DNA of 64,000 nt from an uncultured Gammaproteobacteria bacterium (lineage in GTDB: Bacteria > Patescibacteriota > Microgenomatia > JAMCZE01), in contig CAZNUP010000001.1 in assembly GCA_964576435.1 (NCBI GenBank), positions 378,259-442,258 on the forward strand, given 5' to 3'. A program made the position numbers and the translations under genes. The notes beneath the pieces are model-generated. The model did not search any database. It saw only the letters and a program-made list of their open reading frames with translations, and had not been told where the DNA came from. Shown here one piece after another: positions 3,566 to 31,576 of this stretch. Numbering within the stretch: the stretch's first letter is position 1; each line of letters begins with the position of its first letter.

Positions 3566-5602
3566 ATGAAATTAGATCGCGCCCATATAGTCCAAGTCAT
3601 ATCCCTGCTCTTAATTCAGTCAGTTGTACTTTTGTTATTGTCCTTCACAACTCCAGGAGTAAAGATTGATTCCATTTGGTCTGCGATAGGAATGGCCATA
3701 ATAATCTCTGTTATAGAAAGTATTGTTTGGTGGATTTTTATTGAGTTCTTTGCCCACCTCCCAATCATTCTTTATCCACTTCTAACTTTTCTTTTAACAG
3801 GCGCTGGAGTTTTGCTGGCTGGAAATTATGTTCCAGGGGTCACAATTACTGGAATTGTCCCAGCAATTTGGATTCCAATTGTAATAACAGTGGTAAACGC
3901 TATTCTTGGTGGTCTTTTTTCTCTCGATGAGGATGAATCTTTTGATAGAAACGTTACTAGAAAAATGGTTGAAAAGTATGGACATCCTAAAAAAACAGAT
4001 ATCCCAGGTCTTCTATTTTTAGAAATTGACGGTCTAAGTATTGATACTTTAAAAATCGCCCTAGAAAGAGGAGAAATGCCAACGCTAAAAGCTTGGCTAG
4101 ATTCAGGTAGCCACAAACTTGTTTCTTGGGAAACTGATTTCACTTCTCAAACTGGAGCAATGCAAACCGGAATTCTTATGGGAAATAATGTGGACATTCC
4201 CGCTTACAGGTGGTGGGATAGAGCAACTGGGAAAATGATTATGTCAGGTAATCCCAAAGATGCTAAAAATATTGAGGCCAGGCTTTCAAGTGGTAAAGGT
4301 TTACTTTCAAATGGTGGTGCTTCAAGAGGAAACATGTTTAGTGGTGATGCGACAGAGTCACTCTTTACAATGAGTGCCATGTTGAATAAAGGGCGGGGGA
4401 GAGGACCAGGGTTCTATTTCTATCTTGTTAATCCATTTGTCGTAGCAAGACTCATAACTAGATTTATTATCGAAATAATCAAAGAGTGGTATGAAGCCTG
4501 GGATCAAAGAAGAAGATATAAAAATGGGTCCAGAGAAGATAAATATATAGTTAAATCTAGAAATTTAGGCTACGCATTTCTTCGCGCCTTTATGGGACCA
4601 TTCCTCCAAGACTTAACGACCTATGCAGTAATTAGTGATGTTATGCGTGGTGTTCCAGCAATTTATGCTTTATATGCTGGCTACGATGATCTTGGACATT
4701 TTGCAGGAATGCGATCAAGAGAAGGGTATGAGGCACTTCATGAAGCAGATAGATATTTCAATAGAATTCAAAAGGCTCTAAAGTATGCGCCAAGACCATA
4801 CAATGTTGTGGTTTTATCAGACCATGGACAAAGTGAAGGCCCAACATTCCAAAGTGCATATGGTGAGAGTCTTGATTCACTAGTCAAAAAACTTGTTGGT
4901 GGGGAAGTCCTTGCTTCCATGGACACAAACGAGGCATGGGACAACTTAAATGCTGTTTTGACTGAATCAACTCATGGTGATACTAAATCAGCTAAAGTTG
5001 TAAGGAAAGCTCTATCCAAAAAAACCAAAGACGGTATAGTCCAAGTTGGTCCAGATAGAGACGATAAAGAAAAGACCTTGGATGACAAGAAAGCAGAAGA
5101 AGCAAATATTGTTATTTTTGGATCAGGCAGTACTGGATTAATCTATTTCAAAAATGCCAAGAAGCGAATGACTTATGAAGAAATTCAAAAGGCATATCCA
5201 AGTTTGATTCGAGGTTTGATTTCTCATGAAGGCATTGGCTTTTTAATTGTTAAATCCAAAACCAAAAAAACAATGGCAATTGGTAAAAACGGCGTTAATT
5301 TTGTTGATCTCGGTAAAGTTCAAGGTACTGACCCATTAAAAGTTTATGGAAAAAATGCGGCCGCCCATGTAAAGAGAGAAAGCGGATTTGACAATTGCCC
5401 AGACATTGTCGTTTGTTCAAAGTTTGATCCAAAGACAGAAGAACTTGCAGGGTTTGAAAATCAAGTCAGCCACCATGGTGGTCTAGGCGGCCCGCAAAAC
5501 AGACCATTTGTCCTTTATCCGTCATCATTAAAATATGATGGTAAACCAATTCTTTGGGCAACTGGTGTTTACAAACTTCTATACAGTTGGAGAAAAAATT
5601 GA
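3566..5602 (+). CDS. Membrane protein: N-terminal 4-TM holin-4-like region fused to alkaline-phosphatase-superfamily (type I phosphodiesterase/nucleotide pyrophosphatase-like) domain
   Basis: The first ~120 aa form about four TM helices. The remainder carries 'LLFLEIDGLSIDTL...MPTLKAW...SWETDFTSQTGAMQTGILMG', an alkaline-phosphatase/PF01663-type motif (inference). Confidence 0.65.
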   Translation: MKLDRAHIVQVISLLLIQSVVLLLLSFTTPGVKIDSIWSAIGMAIIISVIESIVWWIFIEFFAHLPIILYPLLTFLLTGAGVLLAGNYVPGVTITGIVPAIWIPIVITVVNAILGGLFSLDEDESFDRNVTRKMVEKYGHPKKTDIPGLLFLEIDGLSIDTLKIALERGEMPTLKAWLDSGSHKLVSWETDFTSQTGAMQTGILMGNNVDIPAYRWWDRATGKMIMSGNPKDAKNIEARLSSGKGLLSNGGASRGNMFSGDATESLFTMSAMLNKGRGRGPGFYFYLVNPFVVARLITRFIIEIIKEWYEAWDQRRRYKNGSREDKYIVKSRNLGYAFLRAFMGPFLQDLTTYAVISDVMRGVPAIYALYAGYDDLGHFAGMRSREGYEALHEADRYFNRIQKALKYAPRPYNVVVLSDHGQSEGPTFQSAYGESLDSLVKKLVGGEVLASMDTNEAWDNLNAVLTESTHGDTKSAKVVRKALSKKTKDGIVQVGPDRDDKEKTLDDKKAEEANIVIFGSGSTGLIYFKNAKKRMTYEEIQKAYPSLIRGLISHEGIGFLIVKSKTKKTMAIGKNGVNFVDLGKVQGTDPLKVYGKNAAAHVKRESGFDNCPDIVVCSKFDPKTEELAGFENQVSHHGGLGGPQNRPFVLYPSSLKYDGKPILWATGVYKLLYSWRKN

Positions 5603-23128: not shown

Positions 23129-24358
23129 ATGACAAACTTTAAAAAACAATTAGTAGGTGCTCTCGCAACCGGCCTCTTGGTCGCCAATATTTTGGCCCCA
23201 GTCGCCTATGCAGAAGATGGAATCCATCTTGAAGTGAGTGGAAATGGAGCAAAATCCGATTCCACAATCAACGCAGCTGTTTCAAACACTACTGCCGTTA
23301 CCCAAAGTAACGTAGCTAATGTCACAAACAATGTTGATTCAACATCCAATAGCGGAGGAAACAAGGCTAGTGGAAACACTTCTGGAGACGTTTTAATCAA
23401 GACTGGTAAAGCTACATCTAATGTAGAAGTCGCCAATAACTTGAACACAAACGTAGCCAATGTTGATTGCTGCGGAGCCACTTCCACTAACGTTACTATT
23501 TCTGGAAATGGAAAGAAATCAGATAATGATGTAAACCTTTCACAGACCAATGCTAACGTTGTTGCACAAACAAATGAAGCAAACGTCTTAAACAACGTTG
23601 ATTCAAAAGCAAACAGTGGAAAAAACAAAGCTAATGCAAACACTGGAGGCGATGTCACAGTTGTGACAGGAGCAGCCACTGCAGGAGCCGATGTTTCCAC
23701 ACATGCTAATACTAATGTTGCAAACATTGGTGGAGGACATATGGGAGATGAAGGAGAAGTTTCCTTGATCATCTCAGGAAATGGAGAGAAGTCAGACAAT
23801 GATATTGCCTTGGCACTCTCTAACGCTAATTCACTCATTCAAGCAAACGAAGCTAACGTCACTAATGACGTTGATGCAAAAGCTAATTCAGGATACAACA
23901 AAGCCAACGCTAATACCGGAGGCGAAGTTGCAATCTTAACTGGAAAAGCAGACGCAATGGTCGGAGTTGACAATGATGTTAACTTTAACTGGGCAGACGT
24001 TGATTGCGGATGTGTTACCGATTTGAAAGCTAAAGTAGCTGGAAATGGCAAAGAATCTGACAATGATATCAATGCCTCACTCGTTAATACTAAGTTAGCT
24101 GAACAAGTGAATGCAGCAGCTCTACAAAATAATGTAGACGCAAAAGCCAAATCTGGTTGGAATAAAGCAAACGATAACACCGGATCAGTTGAAGGAAGTG
24201 ATCCAGCTATCTTAACTGGGGATTCGTCCTCAAACACAGAAGTTGGAAATTCCAGTAACTGGAACGTGTTTGGAAATGGAGAACTTACTCCTTTGCCAGA
24301 ATTCGACTTTGATTTTGACTGGAGTACATTCATGTTCTGGATGGTTCAACATTCATAA
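23129..24358 (+). CDS. Secreted tandem-repeat surface protein (novel 'SGNG...NSGxNKxNxNTGG' repeat family, ~89-aa period, Cys-pair junction motifs)
   Basis: Strong SD (AAGGGGGTG). Signal peptide 'LLVANILAPVAYA'. Four repeats start at aa 37, 125, 216 and 305, each with '[IV]SGNGxKSD.....N.VD..ANSG.NKANANTGG[DE]V.[IV].TG'. Cys motifs 'VDCCGATS' and 'VDCGCVTD' sit at repeat junctions. Confidence 0.75.
   Translation: MTNFKKQLVGALATGLLVANILAPVAYAEDGIHLEVSGNGAKSDSTINAAVSNTTAVTQSNVANVTNNVDSTSNSGGNKASGNTSGDVLIKTGKATSNVEVANNLNTNVANVDCCGATSTNVTISGNGKKSDNDVNLSQTNANVVAQTNEANVLNNVDSKANSGKNKANANTGGDVTVVTGAATAGADVSTHANTNVANIGGGHMGDEGEVSLIISGNGEKSDNDIALALSNANSLIQANEANVTNDVDAKANSGYNKANANTGGEVAILTGKADAMVGVDNDVNFNWADVDCGCVTDLKAKVAGNGKESDNDINASLVNTKLAEQVNAAALQNNVDAKAKSGWNKANDNTGSVEGSDPAILTGDSSSNTEVGNSSNWNVFGNGELTPLPEFDFDFDWSTFMFWMVQHS
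23225..24280 (+). repeat. Four ~267-nt coding tandem repeats inside the 23129-24358 gene
   Basis: Periodicity of the SGNG/NTGG motif blocks in the translated protein. The nucleotide level is diverged (not identical copies). Confidence 0.6.
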
Positions 24359-24447: not shown

Positions 24448-26679
24448 ATGAAAAATCTTAAAAATAAAATTACAAAATCGCTAAGCATACTATTAATTGT
24501 GATTCTCTTTTTGGGTCACATGTCTCCCCTTGCTGTTTTAGCAGAAGAAGGAACACCAACGCCAGAGCCCACTCAACAAGTTCAACAAGAAGCAACACCA
24601 ACTCCTCAACCTGAAGCAACTCAAATACCAGCACCTGTTGCAACACCAGTTGCACCAACCACGCCAACAGCACCAGTAACTCCTGTAGCACCAACTAACC
24701 CAAATCCAGTTGTTGTAGCACCAGTAACTCCAGTGGCTCCAGTAGCGCCAAGTAATTCAAATAATAATTCAAATAACGAAGAATCTAAAAATAAAGAGGC
24801 CAATAAAGAGAAGAAAAGATCAGAAAATAAATCCAACAACAATAGTGGTGGAAACGTTGGTGATACAACTGTAAATACTGGTAGCACAAATACTAACGGA
24901 GCAATCGTAACAGATGCTAATTCAAATCTTGCTGGCACAAACGGAGGATCAACAAATGGAGTAAGTATCGTAAATGCAAATAATGGCCAGGCTTCAGACA
25001 ATAGTGGTTCAGCGTCAGTTGTTAACAACGACAATACCAATCAAAACAACAATGCCAACGTTTCAAACGGACTTAGTCTAAGTTCTGATTCCGGAAGTAA
25101 CAAAAGTAATGGCAATGTTGGTGATACAACTATTAAAACTGGAGATTCAAATGTTTCAGGAACAATAATCACAGCAGTGAACACAAATGTTGACGGCGTC
25201 ATGGTCTCAGAATTTAATATCGCTGATGATCACGTTGGAGACATCGTCTTAGACTTTGGTGCAAATTGTGTCTCTGGTTGTGGTAACAGCAACGTATCAG
25301 CAAACAACACAGGTAATGGAGCAAATTCAAATAATACGGCCAATTCTGATTTAACAAACAACACAAACACTTTCCAAAATAATGACGCCAATGTTGGTAA
25401 TGACCTTGTCTTGTCAGCAAATAGTGGGAACAACAAGGCTAACGCAAATACTGGTGGAGATAGTTCCATTCAAACTGGCGACGCGAATGTTTCAGGAAAC
25501 GTTCTGACAATGGCTAACAACAATTTTGCAGGGAATGTCGTTTACGGGGTAGTCAACATTTATGGAGATCTTCATGGAGATATCGTTTTCCCAGAAGAAC
25601 AAATGACAGGTTGTTGTGGAACTGGAAGTCTCGCTGCAAACAATATTGGCAATGGATCCAATTCAACAAATTCTGCTAATGGAAGTGCAACCAACAATAA
25701 CAACACGACACAAAACAATAACGCCAATATTACAAACACACTTGATCTAGATGCAGTTACTGGAGACAATAAATTGAATGCAAATACTGGTGGTAATTCC
25801 GAAGTCACAACAGGCAACACCAATGTTCAAGCCAATGTCTTGAATGTCGCCAACAATAATCTTGATGGCGGTAATATGTGGCTTGTCTTAATTAACGACG
25901 CAGGTAAATGGATTGGTAAATTAGTTGGAGCCGATGGAAATATGGCTGCTTCTGGTGGAACAGTTCTAACAGTTGACGAAAATGGTCAGATAACTGCTTC
26001 CAATAACGGAAATGGTAGCGGTTCAACAAATTCAACAGATGGTAGTGTCACAAACAACAACAATACGACTCAAAACAATAATGCCAACATAAATAACAAT
26101 GTTAACCTCTCAGCAAATACAGGTGGCAATTCAACAAGTTATAACACTGGGGGAGATAATGCAATTCAAACTGGAGATGCCAATATCATTGTTAACATGG
26201 TTAACTTTGTAAACAATAATATTACTGGCAATGGAAAATTGTTTGTCACAGTCGTTAACGTATTTGGTAGTTGGACTGGTGATTTCTTAACACCAGGACA
26301 AAAGAAAGAATCAAAGCCAGCTGCTCAAACTGTAGCTAACTCACAAAGTTCACAGTCAACAAATAATAGTAATCAAACACAGCAAGAACAAAGTTCGGTA
26401 CTTGGTTGGACACAGACTAATACACAAACAACACAAACTGTAAAAACAACTCAAACAAATCCTGCTGGCGGAGTACTCTCTTTCTTTGCTGGAGCACAAA
26501 ATAAAACTAACACTTTGAAAGAATCTGTTGGAGTTAAAGATGCAAAAATCACTAAATCTTCTAAATCAAAAGTAAAAATAAACTTGGCATGGTTGATTTT
26601 GGCTTTGCCATTTGCTATACTCTTCCTGTTAAGGAAAAGAGTGGCTCAAGTAGTCACCAAAATGACCGCTCTTCTCTAA
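24448..26679 (+). CDS. Large secreted N/S/T-rich repeat protein of the same 'NKxNxNTGG' family, Pro/Thr-rich N-terminal linker, C-terminal TM + basic tail
   Basis: Signal peptide 'ILLIVILFLGHMSPLAVLA'. 'PTPEPTQQ...TPVAPTTPTAPVTPVAPT' linker. At least 5 repeats 'SxNKxN.NTGGDSSIQTGDANVSGNVLTMANNNFAGN'. Cys motifs 'GANCVSGCG' and 'MTGCCGTG'. C-terminus 'INLAWLILALPFAILFLLRKRVA'. Confidence 0.75.
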   Translation: MKNLKNKITKSLSILLIVILFLGHMSPLAVLAEEGTPTPEPTQQVQQEATPTPQPEATQIPAPVATPVAPTTPTAPVTPVAPTNPNPVVVAPVTPVAPVAPSNSNNNSNNEESKNKEANKEKKRSENKSNNNSGGNVGDTTVNTGSTNTNGAIVTDANSNLAGTNGGSTNGVSIVNANNGQASDNSGSASVVNNDNTNQNNNANVSNGLSLSSDSGSNKSNGNVGDTTIKTGDSNVSGTIITAVNTNVDGVMVSEFNIADDHVGDIVLDFGANCVSGCGNSNVSANNTGNGANSNNTANSDLTNNTNTFQNNDANVGNDLVLSANSGNNKANANTGGDSSIQTGDANVSGNVLTMANNNFAGNVVYGVVNIYGDLHGDIVFPEEQMTGCCGTGSLAANNIGNGSNSTNSANGSATNNNNTTQNNNANITNTLDLDAVTGDNKLNANTGGNSEVTTGNTNVQANVLNVANNNLDGGNMWLVLINDAGKWIGKLVGADGNMAASGGTVLTVDENGQITASNNGNGSGSTNSTDGSVTNNNNTTQNNNANINNNVNLSANTGGNSTSYNTGGDNAIQTGDANIIVNMVNFVNNNITGNGKLFVTVVNVFGSWTGDFLTPGQKKESKPAAQTVANSQSSQSTNNSNQTQQEQSSVLGWTQTNTQTTQTVKTTQTNPAGGVLSFFAGAQNKTNTLKESVGVKDAKITKSSKSKVKINLAWLILALPFAILFLLRKRVAQVVTKMTALL

Positions 26680-26703: not shown

Positions 26704-27273
26704 GTGCAAAAAACTCTTTTTACAATTTTTGCGTTCCTCTTAGTGTTAGCTCTTGTCAAAACCCAAGTACAAGCAATCGACTACAGTGTTGAAAATAATG
26801 GTGCCAACTCCCAAAACAACGTAAATGTTCAAAACACCAACAATAACTCCAATAGCCAAAGTAATACCACAAATATCACTAACAATGTAAATGCTAATGC
26901 AAATACAGGTGGCAACAGTGCTTCAGGTAATTCTGGAGACAGTACTATTATTACTGGCGATTCAACAGTTAGTATTTCCATAACTAATAATGGAAACGGC
27001 AACAATACTCAAACTGGTTGCTGTAAAACTCCTACGCCAACAAAAACACCAACTAAGGTTCCAACTCCAGATCCAACAGGCACTCCAAACTCAGGAGGAA
27101 GTAATGGAGGATCGTCTGGTGGAAGTAGTTCTGGTGGTAGTTCAGGAAGTTCTTCAAGTCCACAAGTCCTGGGCCTTTCTAAGACCGCAGGCACTCAAAA
27201 AGTTGACGTCGCATTCTATTTAGCTGGAATCTTATGCCTAGGTCTCGCCGGAAAAAGACTTCTAAAAAGTTAA
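26704..27273 (+). CDS. Small secreted repeat-family protein with PT linker and C-terminal 'LGLSKTAG'-TM-basic sorting-signal-like tail
   Basis: Signal peptide 'AFLLVLALVKTQVQA'. One 'ANANTGGNSASGNSGDSTIITGDSTV' repeat. 'TGCCKTPTPTKTPTKVPTPDPTGTP' linker. C-terminus 'VLGLSKTAGTQKVDVAFYLAGILCLGLAGKRLLKS'. Confidence 0.6.
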   Translation: MQKTLFTIFAFLLVLALVKTQVQAIDYSVENNGANSQNNVNVQNTNNNSNSQSNTTNITNNVNANANTGGNSASGNSGDSTIITGDSTVSISITNNGNGNNTQTGCCKTPTPTKTPTKVPTPDPTGTPNSGGSNGGSSGGSSSGGSSGSSSSPQVLGLSKTAGTQKVDVAFYLAGILCLGLAGKRLLKS

Positions 27274-27803
27274 CCCTCAAGGACTATCTGCCCATTCTCT
27301 TAATAGTAATTGGCCTAGTTCTATTAATGGTTCCCCTAGCAACGAAAAACATTGCTTCTGCTCAATCTAACCCTATAAAGATAAAATCAGAACTTCTTTC
27401 CAAAAAAGACACTAGGGAAGTCCCAATCAGGATTTTAGTCCCTAAATATAAAGTTGATCTTCCCATAATTGAAGCAAAAGTAGTAAATGGGTTGTGGGAA
27501 CTTTCAGAAACAACCGCCTCCCATGGTGTTGGATCGGCTAATCCCGGTGACAAAGGTAATATCGTTGTTTTTGCTCATGCAAGGGACGATCTATTTGGTC
27601 CAATTAGATATATTCAAAAAGATGACGAGATTTATCTTCTAACTAAAGATAAATGGCACAAATACAAAGTTGAGGAAACAAAGCTTGTTGACCCGAGTGA
27701 AGTGAAAGTAATTGCTCCCACCAAAAAAGAAACCCTGACTTTGTACACTTGTTCAGGATTTCTTGATTCCAAGAGGCTTATTGTTGTTGCAAAGCCATCT
27801 TAA
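27234..27803 (+). CDS. Sortase family transpeptidase (N-terminal signal-anchor; catalytic His/Cys/Arg present)
   Basis: Basic N-terminus plus TM. 'NIVVFAHARDD' (His), 'LTLYTCSG' (TLxTC Cys), 'RLIVVA' (Arg). Overlaps the upstream gene by 40 nt. Confidence 0.8.
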   Translation: MPRSRRKKTSKKLTLKDYLPILLIVIGLVLLMVPLATKNIASAQSNPIKIKSELLSKKDTREVPIRILVPKYKVDLPIIEAKVVNGLWELSETTASHGVGSANPGDKGNIVVFAHARDDLFGPIRYIQKDDEIYLLTKDKWHKYKVEETKLVDPSEVKVIAPTKKETLTLYTCSGFLDSKRLIVVAKPS

Positions 27804-27851: not shown

Positions 27852-28457
27852 TTAGAGCACTGTATTGCCCTCTCCAGTTACTGTAGTTTCAACACTAGAA
27901 TCAGCTGGGCCAGTTACGACTCCATTTGTTCCATTGGTGTTGTCTTTCACAGTGTTTCCGCCGGTATTAGCGACTGAGGAAACTGCTGTAACAGCAACGG
28001 TGTTACTCTTTTGTTTCACGACGTTTGTAGTGCCGGAAACGACTGTCACTGTGTTAACGGATTTTTTACCGTTTCCGGTAATGCTAACGTCAGTAGAATC
28101 GCCACATCCACAAGATGGAGCAACTGCTTCATTGGATCCACCCATAACAGTAGTTGTAACTGTTGATGTGGAAGCGCCAGTTGTAACTCCATTTGTTCCA
28201 CCAGTGTTTCCATTAACTTTGTTGTTTCCACTGTTAGCTACAGAAGAGACGAATGTTAATGCCATGGTGTTACTTGTTTGCTTGGTGATATTTTTATTTG
28301 CAGAGATAGCAGTCACTGTGTTAACGGATTGTTTTCCATTTCCACTAATGTTAACTGTGTTTGCTGCAAATGCTGCGGATGCTGTGGTAGCGACCAAAAG
28401 GCCAATTGCCAAAGCTCCTGTTGTTCCTTTCAAAATTAGTTTGTTCATATTATTCAC
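27852..28457 (-). CDS. Secreted repeat-family protein (two ~85-aa SGNG/NTGG repeats separated by 'PSCGCGDSTD' Cys motif)
   Basis: Signal peptide 'ALAIGLLVATTASAAFA'. Repeats 'ISGNGKQSVNTVT...ANSGNNKVNGNTGGTNGVTTG' and 'ITGNGKKSVNTVT...ANTGGNTVKDNTNGTNGVVTG'. The + strand ORF over the same DNA translates to P/V/T nonsense. Confidence 0.65.
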   Translation of the reverse strand: MNNMNKLILKGTTGALAIGLLVATTASAAFAANTVNISGNGKQSVNTVTAISANKNITKQTSNTMALTFVSSVANSGNNKVNGNTGGTNGVTTGASTSTVTTTVMGGSNEAVAPSCGCGDSTDVSITGNGKKSVNTVTVVSGTTNVVKQKSNTVAVTAVSSVANTGGNTVKDNTNGTNGVVTGPADSSVETTVTGEGNTVL

Positions 28458-28466
28458 CCCCTTTCA

Positions 28467-29504
28467 TCAAAGTTCACATTTAATTCGAGTTTCTGCTTCA
28501 CATGTGTCTTTTCCATTTCCTCCGTTAGCTTTGTCAGTTCCTGTTTCCCCAAATAACTTGTCATCACCGTTTCCGCCGTCAATGATGTCGTTTCCCCCGC
28601 CGGCATGAACTTCATCCCTGTCATTACCAACGTCAATTGTGTCAACTCCTGATCCTGAAACTATTAGATCATTTCCATTTCCACCAATAATGTTGTTGTT
28701 CCCGTCCCCTGCAGAGATATTGTCATCCTCATTTCCCCCATCGATTGTGTCGTTGCCACTTTCTGCCGTGATAACATCTTTCCCATTTCCCCCATCAAGT
28801 TTGTTATTTCCCATTCCCCCAACGATACAGTCATCATTATTTCCTCCATCAATTGTGTCGTTTCCTTCAAGACCAATTATCAAGTCTTTTTTATTTGTTC
28901 CATTAAGTTTGTCATTACCTGAGGTGCCCATTATTGTTGAAGTGTATTGGCTGATATCCCCACAAGCTGCGGGTAGAGAAAACGCGACACCGATTTGTAA
29001 ATCAAAAACTATTTTTGTGTTTTGAAATTCATTTCCAGCATTTGGATCAAAATCTAATTTAAATGTATATTGTTTAGTGGCTCCTGAATTTAAATTGCCT
29101 AAGGCCATTCCGTCTGGTCCATTGCTTTCACTAAAAAATTGACTAAGTGTTTTCGGGCCATAAACCGTAGTAGCTCCTTGTGTGATTGTTATTTCTAAAA
29201 CTCCAGACAAACTAGCTGTTTCGGAAGTTAAAAGACCCCGAACTGCGATGGGTTTAAGGTCTGGTGATGAATTTGTGACATTAACATTCCTATTTTCCGA
29301 TTGTCCCGGTGCAGCATTAGCTATATTAAATAGTGGTGTTCCAGGTGGAACTCCCCAGTCAACTGTTAGGTCCCCAACAGCGTAAGCGGTAGGGGATTTG
29401 AAAATATTCATAACTCCCCCACTAGCCCAAACTAATATTGCTATTACTCCTAAAACAATTCCAATTCTGATAAATCTTTTTGTCATATATTTAGCATGAA
29501 CCAT
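28467..29504 (-). CDS. TasA/camelysin-like N-terminal domain fused to RTX-type (GGxGxD) calcium-binding beta-roll repeats; SipW-cognate-like signal peptide
   Basis: Signal region 'WASGGVMNIFKSPTAYAVGDLTV' (compare TasA 'GGGTWAAFNDIKSKDATFASGTLDL'). 'NIANAAPGQSE...NVTN' and '...FDLQIGVAF' are TasA-like. The C-terminal half carries at least 10 nonapeptide-like repeats 'GGNGNDLIVSG', 'GGNGDDKLFG', 'GGMGNNKLDGGNGKD'. Confidence 0.7.
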   Translation of the reverse strand: MVHAKYMTKRFIRIGIVLGVIAILVWASGGVMNIFKSPTAYAVGDLTVDWGVPPGTPLFNIANAAPGQSENRNVNVTNSSPDLKPIAVRGLLTSETASLSGVLEITITQGATTVYGPKTLSQFFSESNGPDGMALGNLNSGATKQYTFKLDFDPNAGNEFQNTKIVFDLQIGVAFSLPAACGDISQYTSTIMGTSGNDKLNGTNKKDLIIGLEGNDTIDGGNNDDCIVGGMGNNKLDGGNGKDVITAESGNDTIDGGNEDDNISAGDGNNNIIGGNGNDLIVSGSGVDTIDVGNDRDEVHAGGGNDIIDGGNGDDKLFGETGTDKANGGNGKDTCEAETRIKCEL

Positions 29505-30126
29505 TATTTGTTAACCCTTTTGTTGACGTGTTGCAGTTTTTGAATGAACCGGTACCATCGATATTTCGACCTATTGAAACATTTGCACTGCTTGAGGCGT
29601 AAGTTTGCGCGCTGACTGTAGCTCCTAAATTATTTTCTAAATTTAATCCATCTCCGGCATTGTTAAGCCAACCCGCGCTATGGTTAAAAGCAAGTATTTG
29701 ACCTGGTGTAATTGTCCCAGTTAGCGCTAAGTCATCAGCTCTAGTGTTATTTGCGTCAAAAATCCCCCAGCCTGTCAAATTTATTGAGGTGTTACCAATG
29801 TTAATTATTTCTACCCATTCATCTCCAATGCTCGGTTGAGTCATAAACTCATTAATTTGCAGATTAGTGATTGGTGCGGGAGTTGGGATTGGGGATATTG
29901 TCGGCGTGGGGGTCAATGACGGTGTTGCAGTTGGAGTAGTGGCTTCAATTGGTGTTACAGTTGGTGTAATTTCTTGTGGTGGAGTTTGCGGAAAAAGGCT
30001 AGCTGCAGTAAACAAATTTCCGCTATTAGAATTAGTGCTGGAAAATAATGCATATGTGACACGATAAGATATTAATGTCAAAAACACTAAAATCATTCCT
30101 ATTAATAAAAAGTGTTGTTGTTTCAT
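29491..30126 (-). CDS. Lamin-tail-domain (LTD) protein with SipW-cognate-class signal peptide and PT-rich linker
   Basis: 'YALFSSTNSNSGNLFTAASL' matches the SipW-cognate signal pattern (AxFxD/S...N.FTAG.L). 'TPTVTPIEATTPTATPSLTPTPTISPIPTPAPIT' linker. 'INEFMTQPSIGDEWVEIINIGNTSINLTGWGIFD' is LTD-like (PF00932). Confidence 0.7.
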   Translation of the reverse strand: MKQQHFLLIGMILVFLTLISYRVTYALFSSTNSNSGNLFTAASLFPQTPPQEITPTVTPIEATTPTATPSLTPTPTISPIPTPAPITNLQINEFMTQPSIGDEWVEIINIGNTSINLTGWGIFDANNTRADDLALTGTITPGQILAFNHSAGWLNNAGDGLNLENNLGATVSAQTYASSSANVSIGRNIDGTGSFKNCNTSTKGLTNNGSC

Positions 30127-30671
30127 GGTGTAGCTGCAATCTCATTTCTAACTTTTTTCTCAATTTGGACTTCCATCTCCTTTTTAATATTCCAAATTTC
30201 AAAGCCCATGAAAATAAAAGCTGGAATGGCGATCGCAATAATAAATCCTGTTGGAGTTTTTAAATTTTGAGACAAATTTCCAATATAAGGTATAGTCGCA
30301 ATCCACTTACCCTTTATGGAACTGCTATTCACTGGATCCAAGTCAGCTGCATTATTAGCGTCTCCTTTTGTTTTAAAACTCACGATATCGTTTGTCATAA
30401 TGGTCTGGTTAATTCTGTGAGCGATTGTCCTTTTGTTTATGTCTTCAAAAACAACTAAGTCGTTTAATTCATAGTTTTTTTGAGGGCTAGTAAAAATTAC
30501 AGACCCAACAGGTACAGAAGGCTCCATGCTTCCCGAGGCTATTGCAAAGCTCCGAATGCCACCTAGCACATTAGAATTTGAAGTGATAACGGTTGCCCCG
30601 ACCAAAATAAGGATCAAAGCCAATGTTGATTTAAGAAAGATTCCTAAGCCAGTTAGTATTTTTTTGTTCAT
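30123..30671 (-). CDS. sipW: SipW-type (ER/archaeal-type) signal peptidase I with C-terminal TM
   Basis: N-terminal TM. 'SGSMEPSVPVGSVIF' (the catalytic-Ser SGSMxP box of S26B/SipW-type peptidases). Second TM near the C-terminus 'FIIAIAIPAFIFMGF'. ATGA overlap with the downstream LTD gene. Confidence 0.8.
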   Translation of the reverse strand: MNKKILTGLGIFLKSTLALILILVGATVITSNSNVLGGIRSFAIASGSMEPSVPVGSVIFTSPQKNYELNDLVVFEDINKRTIAHRINQTIMTNDIVSFKTKGDANNAADLDPVNSSSIKGKWIATIPYIGNLSQNLKTPTGFIIAIAIPAFIFMGFEIWNIKKEMEVQIEKKVRNEIAATP

Positions 30672-30706
30672 CTAATTTCAAATATATAATCGTATGTTCC
30701 CGGGTG

Positions 30707-30723
30707 GCGGGGCCATCCCCGCC
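30707..30723 (-). other. Intercistronic GC hairpin between tasA-like and sipW (no U-tract): possible partial terminator or processing site
   Basis: GGCGGGG-CCAU-CCCCGCC 7-bp G/C stem, plus an adjacent CCCGGG palindrome, inside the 58-nt gap. Confidence 0.35.
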
Positions 30724-30729
30724 AAAGTT

Positions 30730-31281
30730 TTACTGTGACGCGGTGAAAGCCATATTGAATGCTACACTTTGTCCTTGAAACGAATCGTCAGTTGTTGGAT
30801 CAAAAGTTAGTTGAGCTGCTAAGTTGTATGAACCTCCTGCGGGTAATGTTGCTCCTGAAAGAACAAAATTAGCCCAAGTTGGGTCGTCCAATGCTCCACT
30901 GCCTAGTGATGTGTCGCCTGCGTCAAAAACGCCATTGTCATTTGCGTCTTTAAAGAGCATTAGATTGAGTTTTGCTGCCAATCCAGGGTTTGCACCCCCA
31001 ATGGCAATCGAACCCACCTTAACAAAATTTGCATCAACAGTTCCTGTATTTTGCAAAGTCAGTTTTTGGGAAAAGACATCGCCAGGTGCTGCTGATGGAA
31101 TGGTAAATACGCCAGTTGATGGGGAGACCTGAGTGTTTATTCTCAAGACCATATTACCGGCTCCAAAAGTATTTCCAGTGTTGGTATTAGTTGAACTAAA
31201 TGCTGCAAAAGCACTACCTCCAAGCATGGCTAAGCAAGCCACGATTGAAACTGCACTAATTGCTATTTTTCGATTTAACAT
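30730..31281 (-). CDS. TasA/camelysin-family protein with SipW-cognate-class signal peptide
   Basis: Strong SD GGAGGTGAG. 'MLGGSAFAAFSSTNTNTGNTFGAGNMVL' signal (TIGR04088-like). 'IPSAAPGDVFSQKLTLQNTGTVDA' (compare TasA NLKPGDKLTKDFQFENNG). C-terminal '...VAFNMAFTASQ'. Confidence 0.75.
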   Translation of the reverse strand: MLNRKIAISAVSIVACLAMLGGSAFAAFSSTNTNTGNTFGAGNMVLRINTQVSPSTGVFTIPSAAPGDVFSQKLTLQNTGTVDANFVKVGSIAIGGANPGLAAKLNLMLFKDANDNGVFDAGDTSLGSGALDDPTWANFVLSGATLPAGGSYNLAAQLTFDPTTDDSFQGQSVAFNMAFTASQ

Positions 31282-31305
31282 AAATTTTTCTCACCTCCTT
31301 CACAC

Positions 31306-31342
31306 AAAAAACCAGCTATCTGGGCAGATAAAGCTGGTTTTT
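31306..31342 (-). promoter_or_regulatory. Long near-perfect hairpin with A5/U5 flanks in the 5' leader of the tasA-like operon (candidate attenuator/operator)
   Basis: AAAAACCAGCTATCTG-GGC-CAGATAAAGCTGGTTTTT. Lies between a candidate minus-strand promoter (TTGCCA-17-TAATAA, about 31352-31380) and the SD. The 'TGGGCAGA' core recurs at about 31391. Confidence 0.4.
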
Positions 31343-31562
31343 CATTAGATTTTATTAATTTTTTAAAATTGAATTGGCAAACTTTCATTTGGGCAGAATT
31401 TCCAAATAAACTTTTTGTGTTTGCCTCCGATGGCGGTCAGCAAGAATAACCATATCAAGACCAAGTCCATGACTGTCAACAAGACAAATTACATCGAAAC
31501 TATGTCATGGTTTTTTGCCATTTTCACTGAATAAAAATCAATTTTTGAAGCGGGAAAAATAT

Positions 31563-31576
31563 GCTAGAATAAATTA
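31563..31576 (+). promoter_or_regulatory. Extended -10 (TGcTAGAAT) placed 6 nt upstream of ATG: candidate leaderless promoter for 31577 gene
   Basis: TGCTAGAAT-aaatta-ATG. No Shine-Dalgarno sequence. Confidence 0.4.

Follow-up and report, generated by a model that had tools for sequence, protein, structure and literature searches.

A TasA-superfamily domain fused to an RTX beta-roll in Microgenomates-group bacteria, a candidate end subunit of TasA-type fibers

Introduction

Bacillus biofilms have a protein scaffold of TasA-type fibers, relatives of which are found across monoderm bacteria and archaea. Here we describe a secreted protein in which a TasA-superfamily domain is joined to RTX-type repeats, encoded next to a TasA-like protein in a 64,000-nucleotide stretch of DNA (the window) from contig CAZNUP010000001.1 of GenBank assembly GCA_964576435.1, which GTDB places in the Patescibacteriota (Microgenomatia). 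The gene for this RTX fusion protein lies at 28467..29504 on the reverse strand (all coordinates are positions in the window unless a locus is named), and we ask what part its product might play in a fiber.

In Bacillus subtilis, residues 28 to 38 of TasA form a donor strand that is inserted into the next subunit, and the donor-strand mutant tasA delta28-38 was among the strains used in pellicle assays (PMC9674648). The accessory protein TapA has an N terminus nearly identical to that of TasA (AFHDI versus AFNDI); it mimics the donor strand, supplies the first strand, and initiates assembly (PMC9674648, PMC10151520), and its complete immunoglobulin-like (Ig) fold has been argued not to enter the filament (PMC10151520). 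Proteins of family PF12389, to which TasA belongs, have been noted in Patescibacteria (PMC9245690). In the literature that we covered, which is incomplete, we found no description of a TasA-like/RTX fusion, of an initiator built on a lamin-tail domain (LTD), or of a terminating or tip subunit of TasA-type fibers.

Results

The open reading frame (ORF) of the RTX fusion protein has exact coordinates and encodes 345 amino acids, and the identical protein occurs in public data on three contigs. Because orthologues start with MIKK, which aligns with MTKR at residue 7, the true start is probably Met7. The product is a secreted two-domain protein, made up of a signal peptide, a TasA-superfamily beta-sandwich (residues ∼43 to 175), and an RTX beta-roll of 16 repeats (residues 193 to 336), with the following parts:

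28467..29504, reverse strand: whole ORF, 345 amino acids as listed, 339 from the likely Met7 start (ATG at 29486)
29379..29504, reverse strand: signal peptide, residues 1 to 42, with a basic n-region, a hydrophobic helix at about 10 to 27, a poorly conserved c-region, and then T-A-Y-A / V-G-D-L
28980..29378, reverse strand: TasA-superfamily beta-sandwich, residues 43 to 175, without an N-terminal donor strand and with the C-terminal edge strand AGNEFQNTKIVFDLQIG kept
28929..28979, reverse strand: linker, residues 176 to 192, with an invariant Cys181 within the motif P-x-x-C
28497..28928, reverse strand: RTX beta-roll, residues 193 to 336, with 16 nonapeptides in 8 turns
28467..28496, reverse strand: short C-terminal cap, residues 337 to 345 (AETRIKCEL), and stop codon, flanked by the near-invariant Cys335 and Cys343

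An AlphaFold2 model of the full-length protein, built from a 39-sequence family alignment, has a mean predicted local distance difference test score (pLDDT) of 90.1 and a predicted template modeling score of 0.77, and comprises a helix (residues 3 to 27), a disordered segment (32 to 38), a beta-sandwich (46 to 173), and strands across residues 189 to 341. When this whole model was compared with the PDB using Foldseek, an RTX fragment of CyaA ranked first (7usl_C; E, 8e-5) and the TasA fiber structure second (8aur_A). These results confirm the fusion of a TasA-like domain to RTX repeats that an initial annotation had noticed in the sequence, and the three repeat strings that it quoted (GGNGNDLIVSG, GGNGDDKLFG, and GGMGNNKLDGGNGKD) all occur in the protein. 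Its single N-terminal region of ∼200 residues resolves into the signal peptide (1 to 42), a sandwich of ∼130 residues (∼43 to 175), for which the TasA-like assignment holds, and the cysteine-containing linker. Cys181 and Cys226 are invariant across the 39 family sequences and would be expected to form a disulfide; Cys335, Cys343, and Glu344 of the cap region are kept in at least 90% of them. The protein has no long C-terminal secretion signal, as 9 residues remain after the last repeat, and orthologues have 10 to 13 residues between the first cap cysteine and the end of the protein.

Homology between the N-terminal domain (N-domain) and TasA emerges from profile comparison and from fold. With hhalign, the family alignment matched the single neighboring PF12389 protein (30730..31281) at 86.8% and an alignment of 22 orthologues of that TasA-like neighbor at 98.2% (E, 3.1e-14) over 136 columns, which is the whole sandwich. 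PF12389 itself (Peptidase_M73; TasA/camelysin) matches 4 of the 39 family members, weakly (best E, 0.0014). Both families share PGD/PGQ, the N of a V-x-N motif, and an edge strand of the form AGNEFQN...FDL.IG (DDSFQGQSVAFNM in the neighbor). Modeled alone, the N-domain has a pLDDT of 85.8, and its sole PDB match at E ≤ 1e-3 in Foldseek is the TasA fiber 8aur_A (E, 3.7e-5; probability, 1.0; TM-score on the query, 0.63). The archaeal cannula protein CanA (9hdi) ranks fifth, the chaperone-usher pilins FimG, FimA, and PapA are among the weaker matches, and generic Ig-like and CARDB-like domains also resemble the fold with weaker scores. When the N-domain profile and the neighboring TasA-like protein were searched against PDB sequences, the best E was 0.22, to an unrelated chain. 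The N-domain therefore belongs to the TasA superfamily by profile homology and fold, and the resemblance is real but remote: the likeness to TasA/camelysin that the initial annotation had proposed, as in the neighbor at 30730, is borne out by hhalign and by the 8aur fold match, but not by the Pfam model alone.

The N-domain family differs from its neighbors at the N terminus, where TasA-type subunits carry the strand that they donate. TasA-like orthologues have a mature N terminus of the form ...GATFA/FFSDTxTSTxNTF(S/T)xG (AAFSSTNTNTGNTFGAG in the window, where the N-terminal strand is AFSSTNTNTGNTF), and the LTD proteins encoded in the same cassette have ...(S/A)/LFSDTAxSxxNTFTAA (ALFSSTNSNSGNLFTAA in the window). 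A donor-type motif, xFS(D/S)TxxSxxNxF, is present in all 22 TasA-like and all 16 LTD proteins and in 1 of the 39 RTX fusions; the SipW-type leader model TIGR04088 matches 22/22, 5/16, and 0/39 of them, respectively (at E ≤ 1). Homology between the fusion family and the TasA-like proteins begins only downstream of the FSDT..N donor segment, with PTAYAVGDL of the fusion protein aligned to GNTFstGtldL.

What the fusion family has in place of the donor segment resembles a cleavage site. We collected residue statistics from 152 family representatives, anchored on the invariant GDL motif and leaving the site itself unconstrained: P-1 is Ala in 143 of them and P-3 is A, V, T, I, or S in 151, while P-2 takes Y, Q, R, E, F, L, K, or S without constraint. 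The simplest reading of this pattern is that a signal-peptidase site of the classical form (A/V)-x-A immediately precedes GDL and that the mature protein would start at V-G-D-L, without a donor strand. We disfavor TAYA as a structural motif equivalent to T38-F39-A40 of TasA because P-2 is free while P-1 and P-3 are near-invariantly small. Between the hydrophobic core and the predicted site the sequence varies in both length and composition, and the AlphaFold2 pLDDT falls below 50 at residues 32 to 38. The role of tip or anchoring subunit suggested in the initial annotation thereby gains a concrete basis, in a family that lacks the donor strand needed for TasA-type polymerization.

The C-terminal region is predicted to be a parallel beta-roll. 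PF00353 (HemolysinCabind) scores 80.3 bits on the protein (E, 9.2e-23), far above its gathering score of 23, and matches 39/39 family members. Where about 10 repeats had been counted at first, which is too low, there are 16 consecutive nonapeptides in a single register with no phase break; position 6 is D or N in all 16 and position 8 is hydrophobic in 15. In-phase xxxGx[DN] units number 12, against a maximum of 7 among 5,000 composition-preserving shuffles. The AlphaFold2 model places one 3-residue strand every 9 residues over 8 turns with a pLDDT of 95 to 98, and the best structural matches to the C-terminal part are CyaA RTX structures (7usl_C, 7rah_E, and 6sus), so that both the profile score and the predicted structure bear out the beta-roll proposed from the sequence. 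Counted between conserved cysteines, the nonapeptides of the orthologues always come in even numbers (16 in 17 sequences, 14 in 13, 12 in 1, and 10 in 3). Length therefore changes by whole beta-roll turns of 18 residues, which points to a real beta-roll under geometric constraint. RTX beta-rolls fold only on meeting extracellular Ca2+, and from this knowledge of the family the roll described here would bind Ca2+ and depend on it for folding. The four conserved cysteines, the short cap, and the even repeat numbers suit a rigid module outside the cell better than a device for secretion.

Within its own group of organisms the fusion is the rule. A word-indexed search with residues 1 to 200 returned 40 proteins of 254 to 350 amino acids, all 40 of which carry PF00353, and the fusion is kept in all 30 loci found by a GTDB scan, so that orthologous loci do retain it. 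The fusion is unusual, as the initial annotation had it, relative to characterized systems, but not within this sizeable protein family of the candidate phyla radiation (CPR). All GTDB loci with a phylum-level name come from Candidatus Levy-, Gottesman-, Curtiss-, Woyke-, or Amesbacteria, which belong to the Microgenomates group of CPR/Patescibacteria. Many loci (L007, L009 to L012, L014, L016, L018, L020, L021, L026, L029 to L031, L033, and L035) are titled "uncultured Gammaproteobacteria bacterium"; because they carry the same cassette as named Microgenomates metagenome-assembled genomes, we treat these titles as unreliable, and they look like placeholders or errors.

An exhaustive hidden Markov model search with the N-domain profile reached much further: 2,619 cluster representatives pass E ≤ 1e-3, of which 134 reach E ≤ 1e-30, and the domain always starts at about residue 30 to 40. 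Distant relatives carry a lamin-tail domain or a Pur_ac_phosph_N (purple-acid-phosphatase-N, FN3-like) domain instead of the RTX roll, and one such module-swapped relative, in locus L038, occupies the same fourth position of an otherwise equivalent cassette. The RTX roll is thus one of several interchangeable C-terminal modules on the N-domain, which acts as a fixed docking unit for different cargoes because the cassette position stays while the C-terminal cargo changes.

Three loci also encode extra RTX-repeat proteins without the TasA-like N-domain (L006 9038..10303, L031 2455..3981, and L034 3373..3918); the L006 protein has 421 amino acids as called and 424 by ORF finder, and the L031 protein has 508. 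We considered the second RTX protein of L006 as a possible N-domain relative and rejected it (hhalign, 4.8%), as the common parts are the P-x-E-C linker and the repeats only.

Synteny was examined in 36 loci (the 30 GTDB loci and 6 fetched earlier), in which ORFs were called and searched with the proteins of the window. The order TasA-like, SipW, LTD protein, RTX fusion is found in nearly all loci with enough upstream flank, and the association with sipW, two genes upstream of the fusion gene, is kept in nearly all orthologous loci. The neighbors in the window are as follows:

30730..31281, reverse strand: TasA/camelysin-like presumed major subunit, 183 amino acids, with SipW-type leader and donor strand AAFSSTNTNTGNTFGAG; PF12389 E, 5.9e-15
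30123..30671, reverse strand: SipW-type (archaeal/ER-type) signal peptidase I, 182 amino acids; TIGR02228, 80.2 bits (cutoff, 51.85); NF046067 SipW E, 2.8e-27
29491..30126, reverse strand: LTD protein, 211 amino acids, with SipW-type leader, donor-strand-like N terminus ALFSSTNSNSGNLFTAA, Pro/Thr linker, and lamin-tail domain; LTD E, 1.5e-11
27852..28457, reverse strand: downstream gene for a secreted, N/S/T/G-rich repeat protein of 201 amino acids, starting 9 nucleotides (nt) after the stop codon of the fusion gene; position often conserved

The genes are closely spaced: sipW follows the tasA-like gene after 58 nt and shares 4 nt with the LTD gene, which in turn overlaps the fusion gene or lies 4 nt from it, and the downstream gene comes after the 9-nt gap. 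From its sequence, the LTD protein, whose N terminus is almost the same as that of the TasA-like subunit, looks like a TapA-like initiator, a candidate that would have only a donor strand to offer, on an unrelated body. In about eight loci (L010, L011, L015, L019, L020, L022 (=L004), L030, and L036), SipW and the downstream LTD-type protein form a single ORF of 338 to 460 amino acids, a fusion of the signal peptidase with its own presumed substrate; Pfam shows only the peptidase part in the L004 and L005 products (385 and 383 amino acids).

Two hairpins flank the tasA-like gene. A GC-rich 8-bp hairpin at 30705..30724 (TGGCGGGG-ATGG-CCCCGCCA on the reverse strand) begins 5 nt past the tasA-like stop codon, within the 58 nt that separate this gene from sipW; a U-tract is missing on the coding strand, and the hairpin may act as an attenuator or 3' stabilizer governing how much major subunit is made relative to minor ones. 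A second hairpin, terminator-like and with a U-run (AAAACCAGCU...AGCUGGUUUUUU, ∼31296..31335, reverse strand; fold z-score, −2.3) lies in the 295-nt intergenic region 31282..31576, directly upstream of the tasA-like ribosome-binding site and with no gene upstream on the same strand; it is possibly a regulatory leader. At gathering thresholds, Rfam gave no match in the window, and the tasA-like leader yielded sub-threshold, chance-level matches only.

In the 36-locus set, the cassette is often followed by an N/S/T/G-rich repeat protein of ∼200 amino acids, a sortase, and larger proteins in which that repeat recurs. The downstream 201-residue protein of the window has no Pfam or NCBIfam match, its homologue search returned only 6 unannotated proteins, and its membership in the system is uncertain. 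It shares an N/S/T/G-rich repeat of ∼85 amino acids (ISGNGxxSxNxV...ANSGxNKANxNTGGxxxxxTG, with small Cys clusters CGCG and DCC) with three other secreted proteins, encoded on the forward strand at 23129..24358, 24448..26679, and 26704..27273; none of the four has a significant Pfam or NCBIfam match, and such proteins recur beside the cassette, with a sortase, in many loci. The sortase of the window (27234..27803, forward strand; PF04203 E, 5.8e-25) is one that many loci keep close to the cassette, in L038 together with a SpaA-like pilin; sortase and pilin may form a second, covalently linked surface-fiber system beside the TasA-type one. The window genes sampled outside the cassette are housekeeping genes. 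One further ORF (3566..5602, forward strand; 678 amino acids) combines a phage-holin-4-like domain of four transmembrane segments with a type I phosphodiesterase/nucleotide pyrophosphatase domain.

Discussion

We propose that the RTX fusion protein is a terminal (cap or tip) subunit, one that accepts a strand but cannot donate one and that displays a Ca2+-dependent beta-roll at the fiber end, and we give this proposal an even chance of being correct. The LTD protein, contributing a donor strand only, would start the fiber as TapA does, and n copies of the TasA-like subunit would extend it into a polar fiber. The fusion protein would be exported by Sec and cut at AYA/VGDL; its mature form would retain the acceptor side of a TasA-type subunit, including the conserved C-terminal edge strand, which in TasA pairs with the incoming donor strand. 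At the growing end of the TasA-like fiber, where a donor strand is free, it would then be added a single time, and further growth would be blocked because it has no strand to donate. On meeting extracellular Ca2+ the beta-roll would fold and be shown at the fiber end as an adhesive or cross-linking module, the N-domain serving as a fiber-docking adaptor that in related cassettes would carry LTD or FN3-like modules as cargo. A larger claim follows the same lines, namely that this is the first dedicated acceptor-only cap or tip subunit of TasA-type, chaperone-free donor-strand-exchange fibers, in which an LTD protein starts, a TasA-like protein extends, and a strandless adaptor ends the fiber with swappable cargo (RTX, LTD, or FN3-like); we advance it tentatively, with rather poorer prospects than the proposal for the protein itself.

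Several points weigh against the terminal-subunit proposal. PF12389 does not match the fusion protein even at E ≤ 10. The cleavage site is a prediction from a sequence pattern: an earlier cut by SipW, near the GG after the hydrophobic core, would leave a 9- to 12-residue segment, NIFKSPTAYA, that might serve as a short, poorly conserved donor strand, and an uncleaved protein would be anchored in the membrane. Fiber formation by the CPR TasA-like protein is presumed, acceptance of a strand by the N-domain is deduced from its homology, and Ca2+ binding and adhesion are ascribed to the protein from family knowledge. Moreover, the AlphaFold2 monomer has a complete and confident fold, which might never open, as argued for the Ig domain of TapA.

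That last point leads to a different picture, in which the protein is a free Ca2+-binding matrix protein or adhesin, secreted or at the surface but outside the fiber, with the sandwich as a closed stalk or spacer and the gene merely coexpressed. The closed monomer model would suit such a protein, as would the weaker likeness of the N-domain to generic Ig-like and CARDB-like domains, the proposed position of the TapA Ig fold outside the filament (PMC10151520), and the RTX proteins without an N-domain in cassettes such as those of L006 and L031. A mere spacer, however, would not be expected to show specific homology to the adjacent polymerizing-type subunit across the whole jelly-roll, edge strand included, or to hold a constant position while its cargo changes, as a docking module would, and the strict synteny with tasA-like and sipW genes also speaks against coexpression alone. 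We judge a role outside the fiber unlikely, though worth keeping in view. If instead the helix stayed uncleaved as a signal anchor, the domain would accept the strand of the first fiber subunit and tether the fiber as a membrane-anchored base, with the roll near the envelope. Such a base subunit would agree with the single N-terminal transmembrane helix (modeled at residues 3 to 27), with a helix-to-GDL region that is long (∼15 amino acids) for the c-region of a signal peptide, with the anchoring idea of the initial annotation, and with the absence of a sortase signal or C-terminal anchor on the fiber subunit and the fusion protein. We nevertheless consider it improbable: near-invariant −3 and −1 positions around a free −2 are the signature of a cut site and not of a structural segment, residues 32 to 38 are unconserved and modeled with low confidence, and by the polarity of TasA an acceptor-only subunit sits at the growth end rather than at the start (PMC9674648).

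Automatic annotations suggest another function, that of a type I secretion substrate such as an RTX toxin or a bacteriocin. Some sources name the protein "Ca2+-binding RTX toxin-like protein," and the NCBIfam models RTX_toxin and EhxA match its repeats, though far below their cutoffs (72 bits versus 1,000). We reject this reading, to which we assign a negligible chance: the 9 residues after the last repeat leave no room for a C-terminal type I signal, the protein carries a signal peptide at its N terminus, and it has no pore-forming, acylation, or enzymatic domain. Its neighbors are fiber genes, and no type I secretion genes (ABC transporter, membrane fusion protein [MFP], or TolC) were found next to it or among the window ORFs sampled. 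CPR bacteria, moreover, are described as lacking an outer membrane.

Among known systems, TasA of B. subtilis (PF12389; PDB 8AUR and 5OF1) is like the fusion protein in its jelly-roll/beta-sandwich, in the PGD and N-x-(F/Y)-Q...F-x-(L/F) edge-strand motifs found in both, and in that the operon of the fusion protein includes a genuine PF12389 protein together with a SipW-type peptidase. Unlike TasA, the fusion protein is without a SipW-type leader and a donor strand, is undetected by PF12389, and bears a 150-residue RTX beta-roll where TasA has a short C-terminal tail. As a minor, operon-encoded accessory of a TasA-type fiber, proposed to sit at the fiber end with an extra and possibly adhesive domain, it recalls TapA of B. 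subtilis and AbpB of Pyrobaculum (PMC9674648, PMC10151520, PMC9245690). The logic would be opposite, however, in that TapA, with its closed Ig fold, is a strand donor, whereas the fusion protein is strandless with a TasA-type acceptor fold; the TapA-like role in this cassette fits the LTD protein (29491..30126), not the fusion protein.

In function the fusion protein would, by analogy, most resemble the acceptor-only tip subunits FimH and PapG of chaperone-usher pili, which combine a pilin-type domain without an N-terminal extension with a functional domain at one fiber end. Unlike those tip adhesins, it shows no demonstrable homology to them, has no chaperone or usher, comes from a monoderm host, and carries its functional domain at the C terminus rather than the N terminus; as an acceptor-only unit it would also be added last, where FimH and PapG are added first. 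Its repeats compare with those of the CyaA blocks, the C-terminal domains of serralysin/alkaline protease, and RTX adhesins, with tandem GGxGxDxUx units and a predicted roll of two repeats per turn. What sets it apart from these RTX proteins is an N-terminal signal peptide instead of type I secretion, a 9-residue cysteine cap, and a CPR monoderm host. Calcium already figures in archaeal members of the TasA superfamily, the CanA/CanX cannulae and AbpX, whose assembly or material properties are Ca2+ dependent (PMC12518558); there Ca2+ lies within or between jelly-roll subunits, while in the fusion protein the sites would be in a separate, appended RTX domain.

The start of TasA-type fibers (by TapA) and their growth (by donor-strand exchange) are known, and a TasA homologue without a donor strand, encoded in the same operon, offers a testable candidate for a terminator. 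It would show how extra functions, here a Ca2+-dependent beta-roll, are mounted on TasA-type fibers, and it is a clear case of RTX repeats in a Sec-exported rather than a type I secreted protein. Little is known of how CPR bacteria of the Microgenomates group attach, and for them the cassette provides a concrete surface structure to examine. If the proposal is true, these ultra-small bacteria would possess a modular system for tip adhesion and length control, through which Ca2+-dependent attachment to hosts or surfaces would be possible.

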